Shown here in pieces: positions 4,866-44,915 of a stretch of 64,000 nucleotides of DNA. The stretch lies in contig CAWAHW010000007.1 of the NCBI GenBank assembly GCA_963781885.1, positions 128,001 to 192,000 on the forward strand, read 5' to 3'. Each line of letters opens with the position of its first letter. The stretch's first letter is position 1. A program made the position numbers and the translations under genes. The notes below the pieces were generated by a model. The model was not told the DNA's origin, ran no database searches, and saw only the letters and a program-made list of their open reading frames with translations. This DNA comes from an uncultured Spirochaetota bacterium (GTDB lineage Bacteria; Spirochaetota; Spirochaetia; SZUA-6; Fen-1364).

Positions 4866-5007
4866 GCCACGGTAATCCGTGGCATTCGCCGCCACGGTAA
4901 TCCGTGGCATTCGCCGCCACGGTAATCCGTGGCATTCGCCGCCACGGTAATCCGTGGCATTCGCCGCCACGGTAATCCGTGGCATTCGCCGCCACGGTAA
5001 TCCGTGG
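4866..5007. repeat. 25-bp tandem array (5 copies + partial) of GCCACGGTAATCCGTGGCATTCGCC, each unit a 7-bp hairpin
   Basis: Units at 4866, 4891, 4916, 4941, 4966 and partial 4991-5007; GCCACGG/CCGTGGC are reverse complements; no spacers. Confidence 0.97.
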
Positions 5008-14130: not shown

Positions 14131-14536
14131 GATACGCAGCCTTCAGGACATCCTTGCCATCAAGGAACAGGCGCAGAAGAAAACGGCCCTCCGCGAGGAC
14201 GGGTACACGATGTGCTTCACCGTGCACATGGGGACCTGCGGGATCGCAAGCGGCGCCCGCGAGGTCGTCAACGCTGTTGCGGCGGAGCTCGAGTCCACCG
14301 GCCGCACCGACATCCGGCTCACCACGTCGGGATGCATCGGCGCCTGCGAGCACGAGCCGGTGATGACCGTGGAAAAGCTGGGCGCGCAGCCCGTGCTCTA
14401 CGGCCACCTGGACGCGGCCAAGGCGCGCGAGGTCTTCCGCCAGACGCTGGCAGGGAAGGCCACACCCGCTTACATGGTCTACGTCGGCGCCGCGCCTTCC
14501 GATGCGCACGCGACGAAGAAAGGGGCCCGGCAATGA
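14123..14536 (+). CDS. hydD: Thioredoxin-like [2Fe-2S] ferredoxin subunit (HydD/HndB)
   Basis: MGTCGIASGA, GCIGACEHEP. Confidence 0.85.
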   Translation: MDKIRSLQDILAIKEQAQKKTALREDGYTMCFTVHMGTCGIASGAREVVNAVAAELESTGRTDIRLTTSGCIGACEHEPVMTVEKLGAQPVLYGHLDAAKAREVFRQTLAGKATPAYMVYVGAAPSDAHATKKGARQ

Positions 14537-17500
14537 GAACGACACGGATGCATCTGCTCATGTGCTTCGGCACCGGCTGCGTCTCTTCCGGTGCGGAAAA
14601 GGTGCGGGACGCTCTGGTGAAGGAGCTTGTCGCACGCGGTCTCATGGACGATGTCGCGATCGGCGACTTGAACGACGGCCACGGCGACGGCAACGGCACA
14701 AGCGGGCACGGCGAAGTGGCCGTCGTACGGACCGGCTGCAACGGATTCTGCGCGTGCGGTCCGCTCATGGTCGTCTACCCCGGCGGCTACTTCTACCAGA
14801 AGCTCACGCCGGAGGACATGCCGGAGCTCGTGGATGAGCACGTCCTGAAGGGAAGGCCGGTGGAGCGCCTGATGTTCCATCACCCCGTCACCCAGGCGGT
14901 CATTCCCCACTACGCGGACATTCCCTTCTTCGCCCGGCAGAACCTGCGCGTCCTGCACAACAAGGGCAAGATCTCCGCCACGAGCATCGAGGAGTACATC
15001 GGCCGCGGCGGCTATGTCGCCACGGCGAAGGCGCTTCTGGAGATGACGCCGCAGGGCCTCGTGGACGAAATGAAGAAATCCGGTCTTCGCGGCCGCGGCG
15101 GCGCGGGATTCCCCACCGGCATGAAGTGGGATTTCGCCGCGCGGACGAAATCGGACCAGAAGTACTTCCTCTGCAACGCGGATGAAGGCGACCCCGGCGC
15201 CTTCATGGACAGGAGCGTCCTGGAAAGCGATCCCCATGCCGTGCTGGAAGGCATGATCATCGGCGCCCGGGCAATCGGCGCGAGCCAGGGCTACATCTAC
15301 TGCCGCGCGGAGTACCCGCTTGCAATCGAGCGGCTGAATCTCGCCATCGCCCAGTGCCGGGAGCGCGGGCTCCTGGGCAAGGACATCCTGGGAACCGGTT
15401 TCGATTTCGACATCGAGATCGCGCGCGGCTCCGGCGCCTTTGTCTGCGGCGAGGAGACCGCCCTCATGCGGTCCATCGAGGGAAAGCGCGGCGAGCCGCG
15501 GCCCCGGCCCCCGTTCCCCGCGGTCGCGGGGCTCTGGGAGAAGCCGACGGTCCTCAACAACGTGGAGACCCTGGCGAATGTGCCGCTCATCATCGCCAAC
15601 GGCGCGGACTGGTTCAAGTCGGTGGGAAATGAGAAGAGCCCGGGCACGAAGATCTTTGCCCTCACCGGCAAGGTCAACAATGTGGGCCTCGTCGAGGTGA
15701 ACATGGGCATCCCGCTTGGTGAGATCATCTACGACATCGGCGGCGGCATTCCGAACGGCAAGAAGTTCAAGGCCGCGCAGATCGGCGGCCCGTCGGGCGG
15801 CTGCATCCCCAAGGAGCAGCTCAACGTTCCCGTGGACTACGAATCCATCACCGCGCTGGGGGCCATCATGGGCTCGGGCGGGCTCATCGTGATGGACGAG
15901 GATTCCTGCATGGTGGACATGGCGCGCTTCTTCCTGGAGTTCACGCAGGACGAGTCGTGCGGCAAGTGCACGCCCTGCCGCGTCGGCACGCGGCGGATGC
16001 TGGAGATCCTGGAACGCATCTGCGCGGGCAAGGGGGAAGACGGCGACATCGAGCGCCTGGTGGACCTCGGCAATACGATCAAGGACACCGCGCTCTGCGG
16101 TCTGGGCCAGACGGCGCCCAATCCCGTTCTTTCGTTCATCCGATTCTTCCGCGACGAGTTCGTGGAGCACATCCGGGACAAGAAGTGCCGGGCAGGAGTC
16201 TGCGCCGAGCTCGTGCGCGCCCCCTGTCAGAACGCCTGTCCCGCCGGCGTGGACATCCCGGGCTTCATCAGTCTCACCGGCGAGAAGCGCTACAACGAGG
16301 CGCTCCTCCTGCATCGCGAGCGCAACCCCTTCGTGGCGGTCTGCGCGCGCGTCTGCTTCCACCCCTGCGAGGGCAAGTGCCGCAGGGTCACGCTGGACGA
16401 GCCTCTCTCCGTGCGGGCGGTGAAGAGATTCCTCGCCGACCAGGAGAAGGAGTTCCAGGTCCCCGCGCCCGTCGTGAACGCGGCGAACGCCAAGCGCAAG
16501 ATCGCGGTGATCGGCGCAGGACCCGCGGGCATGTCATGTGCGTACTTCCTTGCCCGCCTGGGCTACAAGCCGACCGTGTACGAAGCGGCCGACAAGCCGG
16601 GCGGCATGCTCCTGCAGGCGATACCCGCCTACCGGTTGCCGCGCGACATCCTTGCCAACGAGATACGCGGCATCGCGGAGCTGGGCGTCACCATCAAGAC
16701 GAAGAAGAAGCTCGGCAGGGACTTCACTCTCTCCTCTCTGAAGGAGATGGGATATGACGCCGTGTTCCTCGCCGTCGGTGCTCCGACAGGCATGGCCCTT
16801 GGCATGAAGGGCGAGGACATGAAGGGCGTCGTGGATGCCCTTGGGTTCCTCCGCGAATACAACCTCACGGGCAAGGCCGCTGTCGGAAAGAACGTCGTGG
16901 TGGTGGGCGGCGGAAACGCCGCGGTGGACGCCGCGCGCACGGCCCTGCGGCTGGGCGCGGAGACCGCGACCGTGGTCTACCGACGCACGCGCGCGGAAAT
17001 GCCGGCCTACGAGGAAGAAGTGGAAGAGGCCGAGCGCGAAGGTGTGAAGTTCGAGTTCCTCGCGGCGCCCCTGGAGCTGGTGGAAAAGGGCGGCAAGGTC
17101 TCCCAGGCGAAGTTCCGCAAGATGGATCTTGGCGACTTCGACCGCACGGGCAGACGCAAGCCCGTTGCCCGTGGTGAGAACGATTTCACCCTGAAAGCGG
17201 ACATGGTGATCGCGGCCATCGGCCAGACGCTGGTGGCCGACGAGCTCTTCGATGGCGTGAGCGTGAAGCTCAACGAGCGGCACTATCTCGCCGCGGATCC
17301 CGTCACGGGGCAGACGTCCGTGGACTGGATCTTCGCCGGCGGTGACGCGGCCACGGGGCCGTCCTCCGTCGTGGAGGCGATAGGCGCGGGCGAAAAGGCC
17401 GCGGTGGGAATCGACAGGTTCCTCACCGGCGCGGTGCACGCGACGTGGCGGACATACAAGATCGCCAATACGTTCTTCGATCCGGAGGCGGATCCCGTGA

Positions 17501-17823
17501 TCGCCAATCGGCCGGAGGTGAAGATGATTCCTCTTGCGAAGCGCGCGGGCACATTCGCCGAGGTGGAGACAACGTGGGCGCGCGCGATCGCGCTGGCGGA
17601 AACGCAGCGCTGCCTGCGCTGCGACTACCGCGAAGAAGCGGCTGTCGGAGCGTCCAACGGCAACGGCACGGCCCAAATGCCACGGAGTACCGTGGCCGCC
17701 GGTGCTTCGCAAATGCCACGGAGTACCGTGGCCGCCGGTGCTTCGCAAATGCCACGGAGTACCGTGGCCGGTGCTTCGCAAATGCCACGGAGTACCGTGG
17801 CCGGTGCCAGGAAAGGAGCGTAA
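14533..17823 (+). CDS. hydB: NuoF-like FMN/NADH subunit fused to a GltD/NfnB-like FAD/NAD(P)H oxidoreductase module
   Basis: GLRGRGGAGFP, CNADEGDPG, GAFVCGEET, ESCGKCTPCR, then PCQNACP, GAGPAG, GGGNAA, FAGGD, RCLRC. Confidence 0.92.
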   Translation: MRTTRMHLLMCFGTGCVSSGAEKVRDALVKELVARGLMDDVAIGDLNDGHGDGNGTSGHGEVAVVRTGCNGFCACGPLMVVYPGGYFYQKLTPEDMPELVDEHVLKGRPVERLMFHHPVTQAVIPHYADIPFFARQNLRVLHNKGKISATSIEEYIGRGGYVATAKALLEMTPQGLVDEMKKSGLRGRGGAGFPTGMKWDFAARTKSDQKYFLCNADEGDPGAFMDRSVLESDPHAVLEGMIIGARAIGASQGYIYCRAEYPLAIERLNLAIAQCRERGLLGKDILGTGFDFDIEIARGSGAFVCGEETALMRSIEGKRGEPRPRPPFPAVAGLWEKPTVLNNVETLANVPLIIANGADWFKSVGNEKSPGTKIFALTGKVNNVGLVEVNMGIPLGEIIYDIGGGIPNGKKFKAAQIGGPSGGCIPKEQLNVPVDYESITALGAIMGSGGLIVMDEDSCMVDMARFFLEFTQDESCGKCTPCRVGTRRMLEILERICAGKGEDGDIERLVDLGNTIKDTALCGLGQTAPNPVLSFIRFFRDEFVEHIRDKKCRAGVCAELVRAPCQNACPAGVDIPGFISLTGEKRYNEALLLHRERNPFVAVCARVCFHPCEGKCRRVTLDEPLSVRAVKRFLADQEKEFQVPAPVVNAANAKRKIAVIGAGPAGMSCAYFLARLGYKPTVYEAADKPGGMLLQAIPAYRLPRDILANEIRGIAELGVTIKTKKKLGRDFTLSSLKEMGYDAVFLAVGAPTGMALGMKGEDMKGVVDALGFLREYNLTGKAAVGKNVVVVGGGNAAVDAARTALRLGAETATVVYRRTRAEMPAYEEEVEEAEREGVKFEFLAAPLELVEKGGKVSQAKFRKMDLGDFDRTGRRKPVARGENDFTLKADMVIAAIGQTLVADELFDGVSVKLNERHYLAADPVTGQTSVDWIFAGGDAATGPSSVVEAIGAGEKAAVGIDRFLTGAVHATWRTYKIANTFFDPEADPVIANRPEVKMIPLAKRAGTFAEVETTWARAIALAETQRCLRCDYREEAAVGASNGNGTAQMPRSTVAAGASQMPRSTVAAGASQMPRSTVAGASQMPRSTVAGARKGA
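17674..17807 (+). repeat. In-frame tandem repeat (36,36,33,29 bp) of CAAATGCCACGGAGTACCGTGGCC(GCC)GGTGCTTCG at the 3' end of hydB
   Basis: Encodes QMPRSTVA(A)GAS x4; each unit holds the GCCACGG-AGTA-CCGTGGC hairpin. Confidence 0.96.
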
Positions 17824-28540: not shown

Positions 28541-28646
28541 GACTGCCCCCTTGTGCGTTGTTTGTGGCGTGCCGCATCGAGACGCCAATCTCATGATACG
28601 GCCGATCCACGTTGTAGCAACCACCTGGGGGCACTTCATATTGTCT

Positions 28647-28758
28647 CATTTTGGACCATCCTGAGCTTTGGAAAAGGTATGCACACTTTGAAAACGGCCC
28701 TTTCATCATGGGACAAAATGAGAACTGCATCATTCAGTCACCATGCTGAGAATTGCTG
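28647..28758. repeat. Right part of a ~120-bp inverted-repeat (MITE-like) element interrupted by the IS110; left part at 27153-27162
   Basis: Rejoined empty site GCAGTTCTCATTTTG is the exact reverse complement of CAAAATGAGAACTGC (28714-28728); a third related copy TGAGAATTGCTG at 28747-28758. Confidence 0.75.
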
Positions 28759-40306: not shown

Positions 40307-41417
40307 TCAGCCGGAGAGCCGCTCGTAAATGGCGGCGAACTCCTCCGCGACCGTGGAGAAAACGGCGAGGATGCGCGGGTCGAAGTGGGAGGGCATCGTG
40401 CGGCCGTCGCCTTTCGTGATGATGGCGACGCTATCGGCGTGGGTAACCGCAGGCTTGTAGCGGCGCGGCGAGCGCAGCGCGTCGTAGACGTCGGCGACGG
40501 ACATGATCTGCGCGGCTAGCGGGATGTCGTCCCCCGCGAGCCCCCGTGGGTAGCCGCTGCCGTCGCGCCGCTCGTGGTGCGCGTGCGCGATCTCCGCGCC
40601 CATGCTGATGAAGCCGTTGCGCGGGTAGTTCTCCTGCACGCCGTGGAGCGTGCGCGCGCCGATGGTCGTGTGCGTCTTCATGATCTCGAACTCTTCAGGG
40701 GTGTGACGGTCCGGGCTTCAGGAGGATGAGATCCGAGATGCCCACCTTTCCAATGTCGTGCAGGGGCGCCGCGTTGTACAGGTCGCGCACGAAGGGCTCG
40801 GTGATCCTGCCCTGGAACGCGGGCTCGTCGCGGAGAGCGTTTCCCAGCGCGAGGCAGTATTCACGGACGCGCCAGATGTGCGTCCCCGTTTCGTCGTCAC
40901 GGGACTCGGCGAGCTTCACCATGGCGAAGATGGTCGCCAGCTGCGACTCGGAGATCTCCTTCACCTTCTCGTTCACGAGCTGCTCGAGGTAGCGGTTGTA
41001 GCGTTCCAGCTCCGCCTGGGCGCGGCGCAGCTTCAGGTGCGTCTCCACGCGCGCCTCCACCTCCTCGATCTGGAACGGCTTCGTGATGTAGTCCACGCCG
41101 CCGCGTTGGAAGGCCTTCACCTTGCCCTCCATCTCCGTGAGGGCGCTGAGGAAGATCACGGGCACGTCGCGCAGCCGGGCATCCTCCTTCATGAGCCGGC
41201 AGACCTCGAAGCCGTCCATCTCGGGCATGCTGATGTCCAGGAGCACGAGGTCCGGGGGATCGCTCGCCGCGGCCTTCAGCGCGAGCCTGCCGGACGGCAC
41301 GGGACGCACGCGGTAGCCGCGCTCGCCGAGCATGCGCGCGAGAAGCGTGAGGTTCGCAGGCGTGTCGTCCACGACGAGGATGTTGCCCCGCGTGGGGGCG
41401 GCAGGTGTGTCGGCCAA
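40307..41417 (-). CDS. REC + HD-GYP cyclic-di-GMP phosphodiesterase (RpfG-like), frameshifted at ~40700
   Basis: REC; HDIGK in ORF 40695-41480; [11 protein letters not shown] in ORF 40307-40681. Confidence 0.87.
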
Positions 41418-41517
41418 GGCTCTACCCGCCGGCGAGCATACCCTGCCGACGGCGCCGCTGTCAAAGATGGCGGGCGGCACTTGCCACGCCGCTGTCGGAG
41501 ACGCAGTATCGGCCTAT

Positions 41518-42006
41518 ATGAAACGCACAATCATCATCGTCGTGATCCTGTTCGTGTTCTCCGGTTCTGCGGCCTTTGCCGCCGAGGCGCCGTGCCCGTG
41601 GAGCTTTCAGTCCGAGTTCGATCTCTACCTGTCGCTGAAAGCCGGTGCCGAGTACCGGTTCTCCGACCACTTCGGGATACGCGGCACGCTTGGGGCGTGC
41701 GTCATCTCCCCCACCCAGTTCTCCTGGACGCTCGCGGGTGTCGACCACTTCCTCGGCCCCGCGAGCAGGTTCCAGTTGGATCTCCATCTCGGCCTCATTG
41801 AGGACATCATCGATGTCCTGGGCCCGCTCCCCTCCACCTACCTGGTTCCCGGCGCCTGTCTTTCTTTCGGCTACCTGTCGCCCTCCGGCCACGGAATTGC
41901 GATACGCGTCGGGGCCGGGGTCACCATCGGCTACGACCTGGGCGCATGGCAGAAGCCGGGTTTCCTGCCCGACCTCGCCCTGGAATACAGCTGGCGCCCA
42001 CGGTAA
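41518..42006 (+). CDS. Hypothetical secreted, possibly small beta-barrel, protein
   Basis: Signal peptide, alternating beta-strand pattern, terminal LEYSW. Confidence 0.65.
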   Translation: MKRTIIIVVILFVFSGSAAFAAEAPCPWSFQSEFDLYLSLKAGAEYRFSDHFGIRGTLGACVISPTQFSWTLAGVDHFLGPASRFQLDLHLGLIEDIIDVLGPLPSTYLVPGACLSFGYLSPSGHGIAIRVGAGVTIGYDLGAWQKPGFLPDLALEYSWRPR

Positions 42007-42027
42007 ACGGGCGGACCCTCCGCAGCC

Positions 42028-42327
42028 CCGCGAATGCCACGGATTACAAATGCCGCGGAACTGCGCGGAGTACCGTGCAAGGTACCGCGGCCGGTGTGGC
42101 CGCGAATGCCACGGACTACAAATGCCGCGGAACTGCGCGGAGTACCGTGCAAGGTACCGCGGCCGGTGTGGCCGCGAATGCCACGGATTACAAATGCCGC
42201 GGAACTGCGTGGAGTACCGTGCAAGGTACCGCGGCCGGTGTGGCCGCGATTGCCACGGATTACAAATGCCGCGGAACTGCGTGGAGTACCGTGCAAGGTA
42301 CCGCGGCCGGTGTGGCCGCGATTGCCA
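42028..42327. repeat. 72-bp tandem array (4 copies + 12 bp) built from three nested hairpins
   Basis: Unit CCGCGAATGCCACGGATTACAAATGCCGCGGAACTGCGCGGAGTACCGTGCAAGGTACCGCGGCCGGTGTGG at 42028, 42100, 42172, 42244 with 1-2 substitutions. Confidence 0.97.
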
Positions 42328-42359
42328 GATCGGTGACCGGCTGATACCATGGCGGCATC

Positions 42360-44915
42360 ATGAGTGACACGGCGCAGGCTTTGGCGGCGAAAAACCGCGT
42401 GCCCCGGTTCACGATGTTAGGCGTCGTTCTGGTCTGCATCGTGCTGTACTACTTCCTCACCTCTTTCCTGTTCGTCTTCGTCTGGGCGCGCAGCATCCCG
42501 ACGGAGTTCTTCATGAGCCACCTGGCGCAGGGTGGCGCGGCGGCCTCTTCCATGCGGACCTCCGAGCTGTCGCAGAACTTTTTCCTTTTTACCCTGCGCG
42601 CGCCGCCCGCGGTCCACACCTGGGTGACGTTTCTGCGGATCTTTTCCATCGTGTGCGTGCTGTCCATCCTGCTCATGCATGCGCCGCTCCGCGGCATGCT
42701 CACCCTGCGCCGCCACGGCCGTTCCGTGCCCGACATGCTCGTGGAGAAATGCGAAAAGCTCGCGCTGCGCTCCGCGAGGAGCACGGCGGGTCTTTTCTTC
42801 ACCGCGGCCGCGGCCGACGTGGCGATCCAGATCGTCAAGATGCTCGCCAGCGACGGAAACATCTCCGCCGGCGCCCCGCGGAGCGTCCCCTTCCTCATCG
42901 TCGTGGCGCTGCTGGTGACATTTTTCATCTACTTCTGGCAGAACCACCGCATCACGGGCACGTACTCCCCGTTCGTCTTTACGCGCGCCGGTTTCGTCCA
43001 GGCGCAGCCGCGCCTGGGGCGCAAGAGCATCCGGTCCCAGATGTGGCTCTCCAAGGTCATCACGGCGCTCCTTCCGATGATCATCGTGCTGCTCTACCTC
43101 CTTGCGTTCGTGTCGCGGACGGATATCCACGCGCTTCCCCCTGATCAGAGGCAGCTTCTCCTGGGGAATTTCGCGAGCGTCTACGCCGCGGTGGACAAGG
43201 CAGGCGACATTCCCGCCAAGGCGGTCTTCATCGCGCCGTACCTGACGGTGGTGGACACCTTCCTCTTCATCGGCGGCGTGAGCGCCGCCTTCGTCATCTC
43301 ACTCGTGCTTCTCCTTCTGATCGCGCAATGGTCGACCCTCTCCATTGTCGTGCCGCTCCAAGAGCTGCAGAAGAACGTGATGAAGACCGCGCAAGGGGAC
43401 TTCACGCACGTCACGCCGGTGCGCGACACCGACGAAATTGGCGAGCTCACGGAGAACTTCAACTCCATGCTCGCGAGTCTCCGGGAGTCGGACAGGTTTC
43501 GCATCGAAAAGGAGGCCGCGGAAAAGGCGAATCTCGCCAAGAGCGCCTTCCTGGCCAACATGAGTCACGAGCTGCGCACGCCGCTGAATGCCATCCTCGG
43601 TTTCTCCCAGCTCCTTTCGCGCGGGGAGAACCTCGACCAGGACCAGCGCGACAACATAGGGACCATCACGCAGAGCGGGACGCACCTGCTTGCCCTCATC
43701 AACGACATCCTGGACATGTCGAAGATCGAGGCGGGCCGCGCGGAGCTCAACGCGCATGCCTTCGATCTGCGCGAGATGCTCACCTCCCTGGAGGCGATGT
43801 TCTCCCTGAAGGCGCGGGAAAAGGGGCTCGCCCTGATCTTCGACGTCGCCCCCGATGTGCCGCCGTACGTCGTGAGCGATGAGGGGAAGCTGCGCCAGGT
43901 GATCGTGAACCTCGTGGGCAACGCGGTGAAGTTCACCACCACCGGAGGGGCCACGCTGCGGGTACGCGCGCGGCCCGAGCCGGGAAACGACGTGCGGCTT
44001 TTCTTCGAGGTGGAGGACACGGGGGTGGGCATCGCCCCGGAAGAGATCGCGAACCTCTTCGAGCCGTTCGTGCAGACGAAAAGCGGATCCGAGGCCCAGG
44101 AAGGGACGGGCCTGGGGCTTCCCATCAGCCGTAAATACGTCTCGCTCATGGGGGGCAAGGTCACCGCGAAAAGCGAACCCGGCAAGGGAAGCATCTTCAG
44201 CTTCGACGTGCGGGTGGGTCCGGCGGATCCCAGCCAGGTGAGCGCGCCGAAATCGCGGAGGAGGGTGATCGGGGCGGCGCCCGGCCAACAGCGCTTCAGG
44301 ATCCTCATCGCGGAGGACCGGGATTCCAACCGTACGCTCCTCATGAAGATGCTGGAGCCGCTCGGTCTGGACGTGAAGGGCGTGCGCAACGGGGCGGAGT
44401 GCGTCGCGACGTGGGAGTCGTGGGAGCCGCATCTGATCTGGATGGACATGCGCATGCCCGTGATGGACGGCTACGAGGCGACACGGCGCATCAAGGCGAC
44501 GGCGCGGGGCCAGGCCACCGTCATCATCGCCATCACGGCGAGCGCGTTTGAGAGCGACCGCAGGCTCATCCTCACGGAGGGCTGCGACGACTTCGTGCGC
44601 AAGCCTTTCATCGAGGACGAGATCTACGAGAAGCTGGAGAAGCACCTGGGGCTGCGCCTCCTCGTTGCCGAGGAATCCGCGGCCGCGGGCGGCGAGGCCG
44701 CGCCCGGCGCGTCTCTTGCGGCGGAGGACGTCGCGACGCTCCCCGCCGAATGGCGCGACGCGTTCCGCAAGGCGACTGCCGACGCGGACTACGCGCGGCT
44801 TCTGTCGATGCTGGGCGAGATCGGCACGCAGCACCCCGCTGTCGCCCGGGCGCTCGGACAGCTCGTGGAGTCATTCCAGTATGAGAAGATTCTCGCGGCG
44901 CTCGGCGCGGTGTGA
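42360..44915 (+). CDS. Multi-TM HAMP hybrid histidine kinase with REC domain
   Basis: About 6 TM, HAMP (DEIGEL..FN.M), SHELRTPL, NAVKFT, GTGLGL, MDMRMP. Confidence 0.92.
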   Translation: MSDTAQALAAKNRVPRFTMLGVVLVCIVLYYFLTSFLFVFVWARSIPTEFFMSHLAQGGAAASSMRTSELSQNFFLFTLRAPPAVHTWVTFLRIFSIVCVLSILLMHAPLRGMLTLRRHGRSVPDMLVEKCEKLALRSARSTAGLFFTAAAADVAIQIVKMLASDGNISAGAPRSVPFLIVVALLVTFFIYFWQNHRITGTYSPFVFTRAGFVQAQPRLGRKSIRSQMWLSKVITALLPMIIVLLYLLAFVSRTDIHALPPDQRQLLLGNFASVYAAVDKAGDIPAKAVFIAPYLTVVDTFLFIGGVSAAFVISLVLLLLIAQWSTLSIVVPLQELQKNVMKTAQGDFTHVTPVRDTDEIGELTENFNSMLASLRESDRFRIEKEAAEKANLAKSAFLANMSHELRTPLNAILGFSQLLSRGENLDQDQRDNIGTITQSGTHLLALINDILDMSKIEAGRAELNAHAFDLREMLTSLEAMFSLKAREKGLALIFDVAPDVPPYVVSDEGKLRQVIVNLVGNAVKFTTTGGATLRVRARPEPGNDVRLFFEVEDTGVGIAPEEIANLFEPFVQTKSGSEAQEGTGLGLPISRKYVSLMGGKVTAKSEPGKGSIFSFDVRVGPADPSQVSAPKSRRRVIGAAPGQQRFRILIAEDRDSNRTLLMKMLEPLGLDVKGVRNGAECVATWESWEPHLIWMDMRMPVMDGYEATRRIKATARGQATVIIAITASAFESDRRLILTEGCDDFVRKPFIEDEIYEKLEKHLGLRLLVAEESAAAGGEAAPGASLAAEDVATLPAEWRDAFRKATADADYARLLSMLGEIGTQHPAVARALGQLVESFQYEKILAALGAV

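Follow-up and report, generated by a model that had tools for sequence, protein, structure and literature searches.

The 64,000-nt window analysed here (positions 128,001 to 192,000 of contig CAWAHW010000007.1, assembly GCA_963781885.1, from an uncultured Spirochaetota bacterium) contains a tandem array of nested hairpins at 42028..42327. We propose that this array was built from genus-specific, tagged micro-palindromes that act as non-autonomous mobile DNA, target their own copies and are then amplified locally, a reading to which we give a probability of roughly 0.7. The family formed by these palindromes resembles the repetitive extragenic palindromes (REPs) and is a real, well-supported variant with an unusually clear self-targeting rule. 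The analysed genome, G000, is a metagenome-assembled genome (MAG) of 4.64 Mb in 7 contigs, with 63% G+C and a completeness of 92.55%; G001, G002, G005 and the others numbered in this way are further genomes of the genus, from uncultured spirochaetes of soil and peat. Most of these relatives, G005 included, are short-read MAGs.

Three hairpin layers are repeated four times in the focal array

Tandem Repeats Finder described the array as 4.2 copies of a 72-bp period (98% matches, score 565), confirming the fourfold amplification of a nested hairpin noticed in the initial annotation. The nested parse given there for the 72-bp unit was reproduced exactly on unit 1:

42028..42327, + strand: tandem array, four full 72-bp units followed at the 3' end by a 12-nt match, CCGCGATTGCCA
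42032-42103, 42104-42175, 42176-42247 and 42248-42319, + strand: the full 72-bp units
42032..42047, + strand: 5' half of the outer element, interrupted after TAC and fitting the family consensus
42048..42094, + strand: inserted 47-nt double-hairpin unit, a member of the composite subfamily
42060..42081, + strand: innermost hairpin layer, AC TGCGCGG AGTA CCGTGCA AG
42095..42103, + strand: 3' half of the outer element, TGTGGC (the right arm minus its first C) and CGC

Letter by letter, the outer 5' half consists of GAAT (42032-35), GCCACGG (42036-42), the loop ATTA (42043-46) and a C at 42047, which is the first base of the outer right arm. The 47-nt insert reads AAAT GCCGCGG AAC TGCGCGG AGTA CCGTGCA AGGTA CCGCGGC CGG, and its middle layer is made of AAAT GCCGCGG A (42048-59) and GTA CCGCGGC CGG (42082-94). 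In the outer 3' half, TGTGGC, a C>T change leaves a G-T pair, and the tail CGG-YGTGGC-CGC was found at all other nested loci of G000. The minimum free energy structure of one unit as single-stranded DNA agrees with this parse, being the three-layer nested hairpin itself (-20.8 kcal/mol; z = -2.76, with 2 of 200 shuffles equally good). Moreover, once the inner 22 nt are deleted, the remainder corresponds to the 36-bp unit of a second array in the window (17674-17803) with A>G and T>C at paired positions, a compensatory A-T to G-C change; without the 47-nt middle piece, what is left equals the 25-bp unit of a third (4866-5007), reverse-complemented, with one C>T change. Both results are as originally described.

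The units are not identical: the inner stem has GCGCGG in units 1 and 2 and GCGTGG in units 3 and 4, the outer loop is ACTA in unit 2, and GATT is found in unit 4 and in the 3' stub. This pattern along the array fits a stepwise local duplication. Concerning independent sequence data, X1 is the one public run found to contain this DNA (as Logan contigs), with 30% of the sampled words, and no RNA run was among those listed. The short X1 contigs are identical to both flanks (100% over 41700-41905 and 42470-42625) and one of them joins inside the array, which none spans.

The hairpins belong to a genus-specific family

The family is a tiny tagged palindrome, RAAT-GCCACGG-NNTA-CCGTGGC-CGS, specific to the genus. 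Its basic unit of ~25 nt comprises the tag RAAT, a 7-bp stem GCCACGG/CCGTGGC, the loop NNTA and a short CGS tail. The core palindrome was observed 9 times in the window against 0.01 expected, and the exact pattern GCC[AG]CGG-N4-CCG[CT]GGC has 138 copies in G000, of which 125 have the NNTA loop in one orientation; RAAT precedes nearly all. Copies beyond the window, on which the initial annotation depended, are therefore numerous: with up to 3 substitutions, 208 were found in G000 (1 for the reversed control), and the AAT positions of the tag are kept in 194-196 of them. They are dispersed over 75 loci, 36 with a single unit and 39 with arrays of 2-18 copies. Array periods range from 24 to 36 bp, 36 of the 39 multi-copy loci are purely head-to-tail, and the loop and spacer variants are particular to each array. 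Besides the focal array, the window holds two others:

17674..17803, + strand: second array, 3.7 copies of a 36-bp unit, AAAT GCCACGG AGTA CCGTGGC plus a 14-nt spacer
4866..5007, - strand: third array, 5.7 identical copies of the 25-bp unit GAAT GCCACGG ATTA CCGTGGC GGC

The third array lies 4 nt upstream of a TTGACA on the minus strand. The second one coincides with the end of an open reading frame (ORF), 14212-17823, encoding a NuoF-like/pyridine-nucleotide oxidoreductase fusion of 1203 residues, with Pfam domains up to residue 1060; the frame continues across the 36-bp array before it is closed by a stop codon. The protein may thus carry the translated array as a C-terminal tail, unless the actual stop or the gene annotation is different.

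A dispersed hairpin family, as claimed initially, is borne out by its distribution, which is restricted to one lineage. Of 20 other genomes of the genus, 16 contained the exact tagged pattern; it was present in 1 of 4 genomes from other genera of the family and in none of 16 that represent other families, and the reversed control had 0 matches everywhere. G000, G001, G002, G005, G009, G014, G015 and G017 are rich in the repeat, and G006, G007, G016 and G020 are free of it. When prokaryotes were scanned with each species represented by a single genome, uncultured Spirochaetota MAGs from peat, fen and soil made up 78 of 80 among the matches listed. No Rfam family matched the focal array at E up to 1 (window 41000-43500), and in the literature we found no description of the RAAT hairpin repeat, nor of repeats in these spirochaetes.

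Two other identities were considered and set aside. A CRISPR array was rejected because the spacers are 2-14 nt long and identical within an array instead of unique. A phage or plasmid origin was also rejected: 2.9 million viral contigs contained 11 exact palindrome matches, and these were taken as chance palindromes because none carries the RAAT tag.

Units are nested at one bond

In the following, X denotes RAAT, the left arm, the loop and C (16 nt), and Y the remaining right arm with CGS (9 nt), so that tandem arrays are written (XY)n and nested forms X[XY]Y. In G000 there are 29 cases in which RAAT and another left arm come 0-9 nt after a left arm. In 14 of these the spacer is 5 nt, corresponding to 13 true nests and 1 spurious case, and the other spacings are mostly chance occurrences lacking an inner hairpin. 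The spacer is NNTAC in 11 of the 13 nests and AGCAC or ACTGC in the remaining two. The 13 nests represent 10 independent loci, which are interrupted at the same bond, NNTAC^CGTGGC, and no two of which share the combination of outer loop, tag and inner loop or arm. Shifting the junction one base earlier gave 3 matches, none with a hairpin, and one base later gave 0. The fixed bond at these loci, together with one orthologous insertion presented below, supports the earlier claim that the element inserts at or next to the loop of its own copies.

Inner and outer layers each have their own complementary arms, for example GCCACCG/CGGTGGC within GCCACGG/..TGTGGC. As the layers carry both their own variants and their own pairing arms, the inner unit would have come from elsewhere and not from a local half-duplication. 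The exact nested pattern was detected 6 times in G000, 6 times in G005 and once in G017 (control 0), and the three-layer form at only one further place, G005:C10. Considering that ~200 hairpins lie in less than 1 Mb of non-coding DNA, a random insertion should almost never fall at NNTAC^C.

A double hairpin spreads as a ready-made unit

The inner two layers of the focal unit represent a subfamily of 40-47-nt double hairpins, already assembled and spreading in one piece, with the consensus GCCACGG-AAC-TGCACGG-NGTA-CCGTGCA-AGGTA-CCGTGGC. Allowing up to 1 mismatch, this composite has 42 matches in 8 of the 21 genus genomes (control 0), and species-wide the pattern was confined to Spirochaet* MAGs (23 of 23 stretches). 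Like the simple unit, it carries the RAAT tag and the CGC/CGG tail, and it also builds tandem arrays of its own, whose periods are 47-52 bp. Other composites have the inner stems TGCACGG, CGCACGG or CACACGG, each with its matching partner. Because the inner layers existed as a ready-made composite, the focal unit records one insertion into a simple unit and not two. The initial proposal of three hairpins nested inside each other is therefore correct as to the layering and the self-insertion, and has to be amended in one respect, the inner two layers having entered together.

Species differ in the presence and interruption of hairpins

G005, the closest relative of G000, has 84-89% identity to it, and the other genomes 77-80%. 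The clearest comparison comes from one orthologous site upstream of a conserved gene, where G000, G001 and G017 have an uninterrupted CGG-TGTA-CCGT(G/T)G. At that site, G005 reads CACGG TGTAC [AAAT GCCACCG AAC TGCGCGG GGTA CCGCGCA AGGTA CGGTGGC CGG] CGTGGC CGC, the bracketed insert being 47 nt long, placed at the TAC^C bond and free of target duplication. As G005 is the closest relative of G000, the intact hairpin is ancestral and the 47-nt piece was gained in the G005 lineage. G005 has in addition a 26-nt simple unit just 5' of the GGAGG of that gene.

Differences were also found at other sites. The focal site in G005 has CAGCCCCGCGATTGCCAGATCG.. and no hairpin, with flanks aligning at 80-87%. 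At C1:418074, a conserved promoter, G005, G014, G001 and G017 lack the element, G015 has a degenerate composite, and G000 a nested unit followed by four 36-bp units. Conversely, C2:903030 is empty in G000, and G005 has there a composite and a simple unit 4 nt before TTGACA. At C4:176468, ~150 nt with two units are present in G000 and missing from G005. Many other loci are common to both genomes, where pristine copies in one often correspond to decayed copies in its counterpart. Such presence and absence among species is consistent with mobility.

Stem pairing is maintained

Simple hairpins have Watson-Crick pairs in 1401 of their 1456 stem cells. Pair 6 occurs as GC (168), CG (24) and TA (5), pair 4 as AT (189) and GC (9), and pair 2 as CG (198) and TA (6); variation in the simple stem is thus largely compensatory. 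A compensated change is also seen between orthologous copies of G000 and G005 (GCCACCG/CGGTGGC vs GCCGCCG/CGGCGGC). Among 31 distinct double-hairpin sequences from several genomes, 96.3% of cells are paired and 7 of 14 pairs are changed on both sides, a value reached by 0 of 500 shuffles; slid controls had 23-51% of cells paired. Selection on pairing, suspected from the start, is in this way supported for the simple and the composite hairpins.

As for the strand on which the elements lie, 33 run along the G-rich strand and 43 opposite to it (p = 0.30), and the GC skew of G000, at most ~0.03, is too weak for a test of lagging-strand bias.

Units abut promoters, stop codons and ribosome-binding sites

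Units are found in all four arrangements of flanking genes (-+ 16, ++ 15, +- 11, -- 10), and 24 loci were scored as inside crude ORF calls, at least some of them near the ORF end. What follows the last hairpin is more regular. A TTGAC-like hexamer starts at +5/+6 at 13 of the 75 loci and past the Y tail at 3 more, a convergent ORF has its stop codon, in reverse complement, between +3 and +6 at 13 (10 exactly at +5), and by an eye count ~9 of the remaining loci lead straight into a GGAGG ribosome-binding site. Strict sigma-70 -35/-10 pairs within 25 nt were present on the 3' side of 8 of 75 loci and on the 5' side of 1 of 75, with a background of 0.7% at randomly chosen intergenic positions.

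The focal array is one of the loci adjoining a -35 box and ends in TTGCCA. It sits between the stop of a 224-aa ORF having no assignment (42006) and the start of a kinase gene (42360):

42360..44915, + strand: hybrid sensor histidine kinase gene (Pfam: HAMP, HisKA, HATPase_c, Response_reg)
42322..42350, + strand: promoter-like site of the kinase gene, TTGCCA, 17 nt and TACCAT, with TG before TACCAT

The -35 hexamer TTGCCA (42322-42327) lies inside the 12-nt stub CCGCGATTGCCA that closes the array, and the promoter sequence is kept at the array-free orthologous site of G005. The terminal 'partial unit' is the native promoter edge of the kinase gene. We also observed that the 5' end of the unit, (A)ATGCCA, is a single base off the -35-like hexamer TTGCCA, and that in units 4-5 of the focal array GAAT>GATT yields exactly the hexamer of the promoter; therefore, arrays could create or move -35-like words.

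The hairpins were also considered as intrinsic terminators, an identity that we rejected for the focal region: their G+C-rich stems are not followed there by a T-run, and a terminator scan of the region returned 2 weak minus-strand matches inside units against 0.8 expected.

No mobilising enzyme was found near the repeats

The initial annotation had raised, as a speculation, a link to HUH enzymes (IS200/IS605, RAYT), and had suggested looking for a Y1 or RAYT transposase flanked by the hairpins. The Y1 family (PF01797) has 5 genes in G000 (C2:1128940, C2:1141082, C4:799806, C6:11014 and C5:309402), of which four lie in near-identical copies of an IS200-type element, 577 bp long and low in G+C, and one, of the same type, is more divergent. 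The element encodes a 147-aa Y1 transposase and has its own end hairpins, which in the copy read in detail are CCACCGCC-TAT-GGCGGTGG and CCACCTCC-TCT-GGAGGTGG. Results did not support the link. None of the 16 Y1 loci examined in the genus has a RAAT hairpin within 1.5 kb, and the insertion sequence (IS) end hairpins are unrelated to the repeat. Nor does the presence of Y1 genes track that of the repeats, which occur without a Y1 match in G005, G002 and G010, all of them incomplete MAGs. The genes lying between close pairs of repeat loci likewise included no nuclease or transposase; they encode ZapA, a PfkB kinase, a PilZ protein, a TPR protein, flagellin and CDP-alcohol phosphatidyltransferases, and there are additionally two ORFs of no Pfam family.

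Comparison with known repeat systems

REPs, known from Proteobacteria and other phyla, are described as small stem-loops, rich in G+C, that bear a GTAG or CGTC tetranucleotide tag at one foot and reach hundreds of copies outside genes; as far as these sources describe them, they are lineage-specific and occur as singles, dimers and ordered tandem clusters (Di Nocera et al. 2013, PMC3733652; Bertels & Rainey 2011, PMC3116915). One of the two sources also mentions CGTC-type families having no dedicated transposase, and some REPs located inside small palindromes (PMC3733652). The spirochaete repeat is similar in being a G+C-rich imperfect palindrome of high copy number and mostly extragenic, its 208 copies (75 loci) falling in the gaps between crude ORF calls or at their ends, and likewise in its restriction to one lineage and its occurrence as singles, dimers and ordered tandem clusters. 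In contrast to REPs, its tag is RAAT and not GTAG/CGTC, the unit enters its own hairpin tip at a defined bond to build 2- and 3-layer hairpins that spread, and its 3' side is tightly apposed to -35 boxes and stop codons. Unlike in REPINs, copies are head-to-tail (36/39 multi-copy loci) instead of inverted doublets, and unlike in REPIN-RAYT systems, where REPs typically flank a RAYT gene (PF01797) present in single copy, no linked RAYT was found.

Elements of the IS200/IS605 family such as IS608 move by single-strand 'peel and paste' catalysed by a Y1 HUH transposase. Common points with them are the exact insertion without target duplication at hairpin-forming DNA, the tetranucleotide 5' of the hairpin foot, and insertion after a TAC-ending word (TTAC in the focal unit). 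However, the repeat is a single 18-nt hairpin with no distinct left and right ends, only TAC is constant before the junction (A/C/G/T-TAC), and the end hairpins of the resident IS200-type copy read in detail (CCACCGCC.., CCACCTCC..) are unrelated to GCCACGG-NNTA-CCGTGGC.

Mobile repeats of 21-27 nt in the Nostocaceae (small dispersed repeats, families SDR1-8), which Elhai and colleagues reportedly described in 2008, are said to be limited to one lineage, to prefer a short palindromic site and to insert into each other. Their sequences are probably unrelated to the spirochaete repeat, and the host phylum is different. Organelle palindromes of Volvox carteri also insert within one another and have conserved 4-nt loop words (Smith & Lee 2009, PMC2670323), two features found again here. 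As that paper presents them, however, the Volvox repeats are A+T-rich, organellar and in both orientations, and its account reports no fixed insertion bond or promoter apposition (PMC2670323).

Origin of the array and alternative explanations

The layering of the units suggests that a simple unit would first have been placed directly upstream of the kinase -35 box. A 47-nt double hairpin would then have entered the tip of this simple unit, between NNTAC and CGTGGC, and the resulting 72-bp three-layer unit would have been duplicated to four copies, presumably via replication slippage or unequal exchange. This last step was probably seeded by the similarity between the 5' end of the unit (CCGCGAATGCCA) and the promoter edge (CCGCGATTGCCA), which are alike over 12 nt and would provide a flanking direct repeat. 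As insertion is exact, leaves no target duplication and appears to recognise a hairpin tip (CGG-NNTA-CCG), movement of folded single-stranded DNA is likeliest, most likely cut- or copy-and-paste by a structure-specific nuclease/ligase acting in an HUH-like manner. More tentatively, and with the odds against it, the activity could be a non-RAYT, structure-specific DNA-joining one that takes the 25-47-nt units as substrates and recognises the CGG-NNTA-CCG tip and also the upstream edge of -35-like WTGMCA words. If true, one rule (hairpin tip plus WTGMCA edge, the latter being the unit's own 5' end) would cover nesting, tandem growth and promoter-proximal landing.

Several points weigh against mobility with self-targeting. 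No mobilising enzyme was found in G000 (a 92.55% complete genome, covered except for 16 kb). A clean contrast between an intact and an interrupted hairpin comes from one orthologous pair only, the other pairs being too diverged, or their decayed copies equally explicable as deletions (G005:C47, C137, C39, C51, C94, C215 and C293 vs G000 are such diverged or decayed sites). At the empty focal site of G005, the sequence resembling the unit 5' end, CCGCGATTGCCA, is present, and a complete array may have been deleted there. Differences in copy number are unreliable, as short-read MAGs may collapse arrays. Moreover, C2:1255572 is nested in G005 and tandem in G000, the two differing by one 9-nt half-unit, and some nested-looking forms may arise or resolve via small indels inside arrays. 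For the double-hairpin subfamily itself, only the shape points to an origin by insertion. Finally, the signs of which strand folds are inconsistent: the inner stem of the composite has 10 G-T and 0 A-C mismatches, and simple hairpins show the opposite trend (23 A-C/C-A vs 10 G-T/T-G).

A purely local origin dispenses with transposition: tandem, nested and solo half-unit forms would all result from replication slippage, template switching and small indels acting in place at hairpin-forming repeats, and the 75 loci would have been reached long ago or via recombination. The internal homogeneity of arrays, each with its own spacer and loop, agrees with this, as do the graded variants along the focal array, the common CGG-YGTGGC half-unit tails and the half-unit step at C2:1255572. 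We nonetheless consider it improbable, as tag, loop and compensatory arm pairs differ between inner and outer layers in 10 of 10 nested loci, the TAC|RAAT junction offers no microhomology to drive slippage, pristine consensus copies stand where the sister species is empty, and in G005 a 47-nt unit of a different subfamily interrupts a hairpin that three other species keep whole. An error of assembly could also be suspected behind the four-copy array or its copy number, G000 being a MAG and the X1 contigs not spanning the array. This is very improbable indeed: the unit copies differ in an ordered way, the window has two more arrays of the family and the genome dozens elsewhere, and independent MAGs from other studies contain arrays of 3-5 units and the same composite.

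Somewhat less improbable than a local origin, while still unlikely, is that the hairpins are primarily cis-elements (a protein site or insulator by promoters, or an RNA-stabilising or processing hairpin), kept by selection for function and not by selfish spread. The position of the last hairpin, 4-5 nt from -35 hexamers or convergent stops or directly before a Shine-Dalgarno sequence and always on the 3' side of the element, would be expected under such a role, and so would the strong conservation across species, the covariation that keeps the stems and the many orthologous sites common to G000 and G005. Regulator sites would not, however, be expected as arrays of up to 18 identical copies, nests and decayed copies; all four flanking-gene arrangements occur, the neighbours are unrelated housekeeping genes, and promoters are unchanged in species lacking the element. 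The lack of T-runs already mentioned excludes intrinsic terminators in the focal region, and no Rfam family matched. A cis-acting function is in any case compatible with mobility, and may explain why mobile copies are retained.

To our knowledge, the spread of REP-like repeats is still debated, and we know of no mechanism proposed for families lacking a RAYT. Unit ends, the preferred tip bond, exact insertion, the spread of composites and locus-specific tandem amplification are all read directly from the copies compared above. A 25-nt unit with these properties and a fixed apposition to -35 boxes and stop codons sharply constrains the mechanism, which becomes testable with oligonucleotides, and provides a search image for the enzyme. 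Moreover, arrays growing right upstream of -35 boxes could alter promoter context and expression in peat and soil spirochaetes, and the repeats account for contig breaks in short-read MAGs of the group.

Other repeats in these genomes

Three other kinds of repeat were observed. A 114-nt, A+T-richer dispersed repeat lies at window positions 28644-28758 (G000:C7:156644-156758; also L120:1219-1332). BLAST returned 13 full or partial copies in G000 (74-100% identity) and >20 matches in G005 (83-94%). It looks like a miniature inverted-repeat transposable element unrelated to the hairpin family.

A small repeat around GGCGAGCGAGTGCA has 19 copies at up to 1 mismatch and often stands on both sides of a RAAT hairpin, as if the latter were centred in a palindromic element of ~85 nt (G000:C5:151642-151780, C5:24271 and C7:556963; G005:C255, L182:365-449). 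One such 85-nt block is present in G005 and missing at the orthologous site of G000. In addition, a third kind of insert, ~45 nt long (..CGGCCTTTCGGGC..TCC.TGCC..), splits a family hairpin right after its left arm; it was seen at two loci in two genomes, G000:C4:176468-176620 (L120:16469-16620) and G005:C271 (L183:~330-400).

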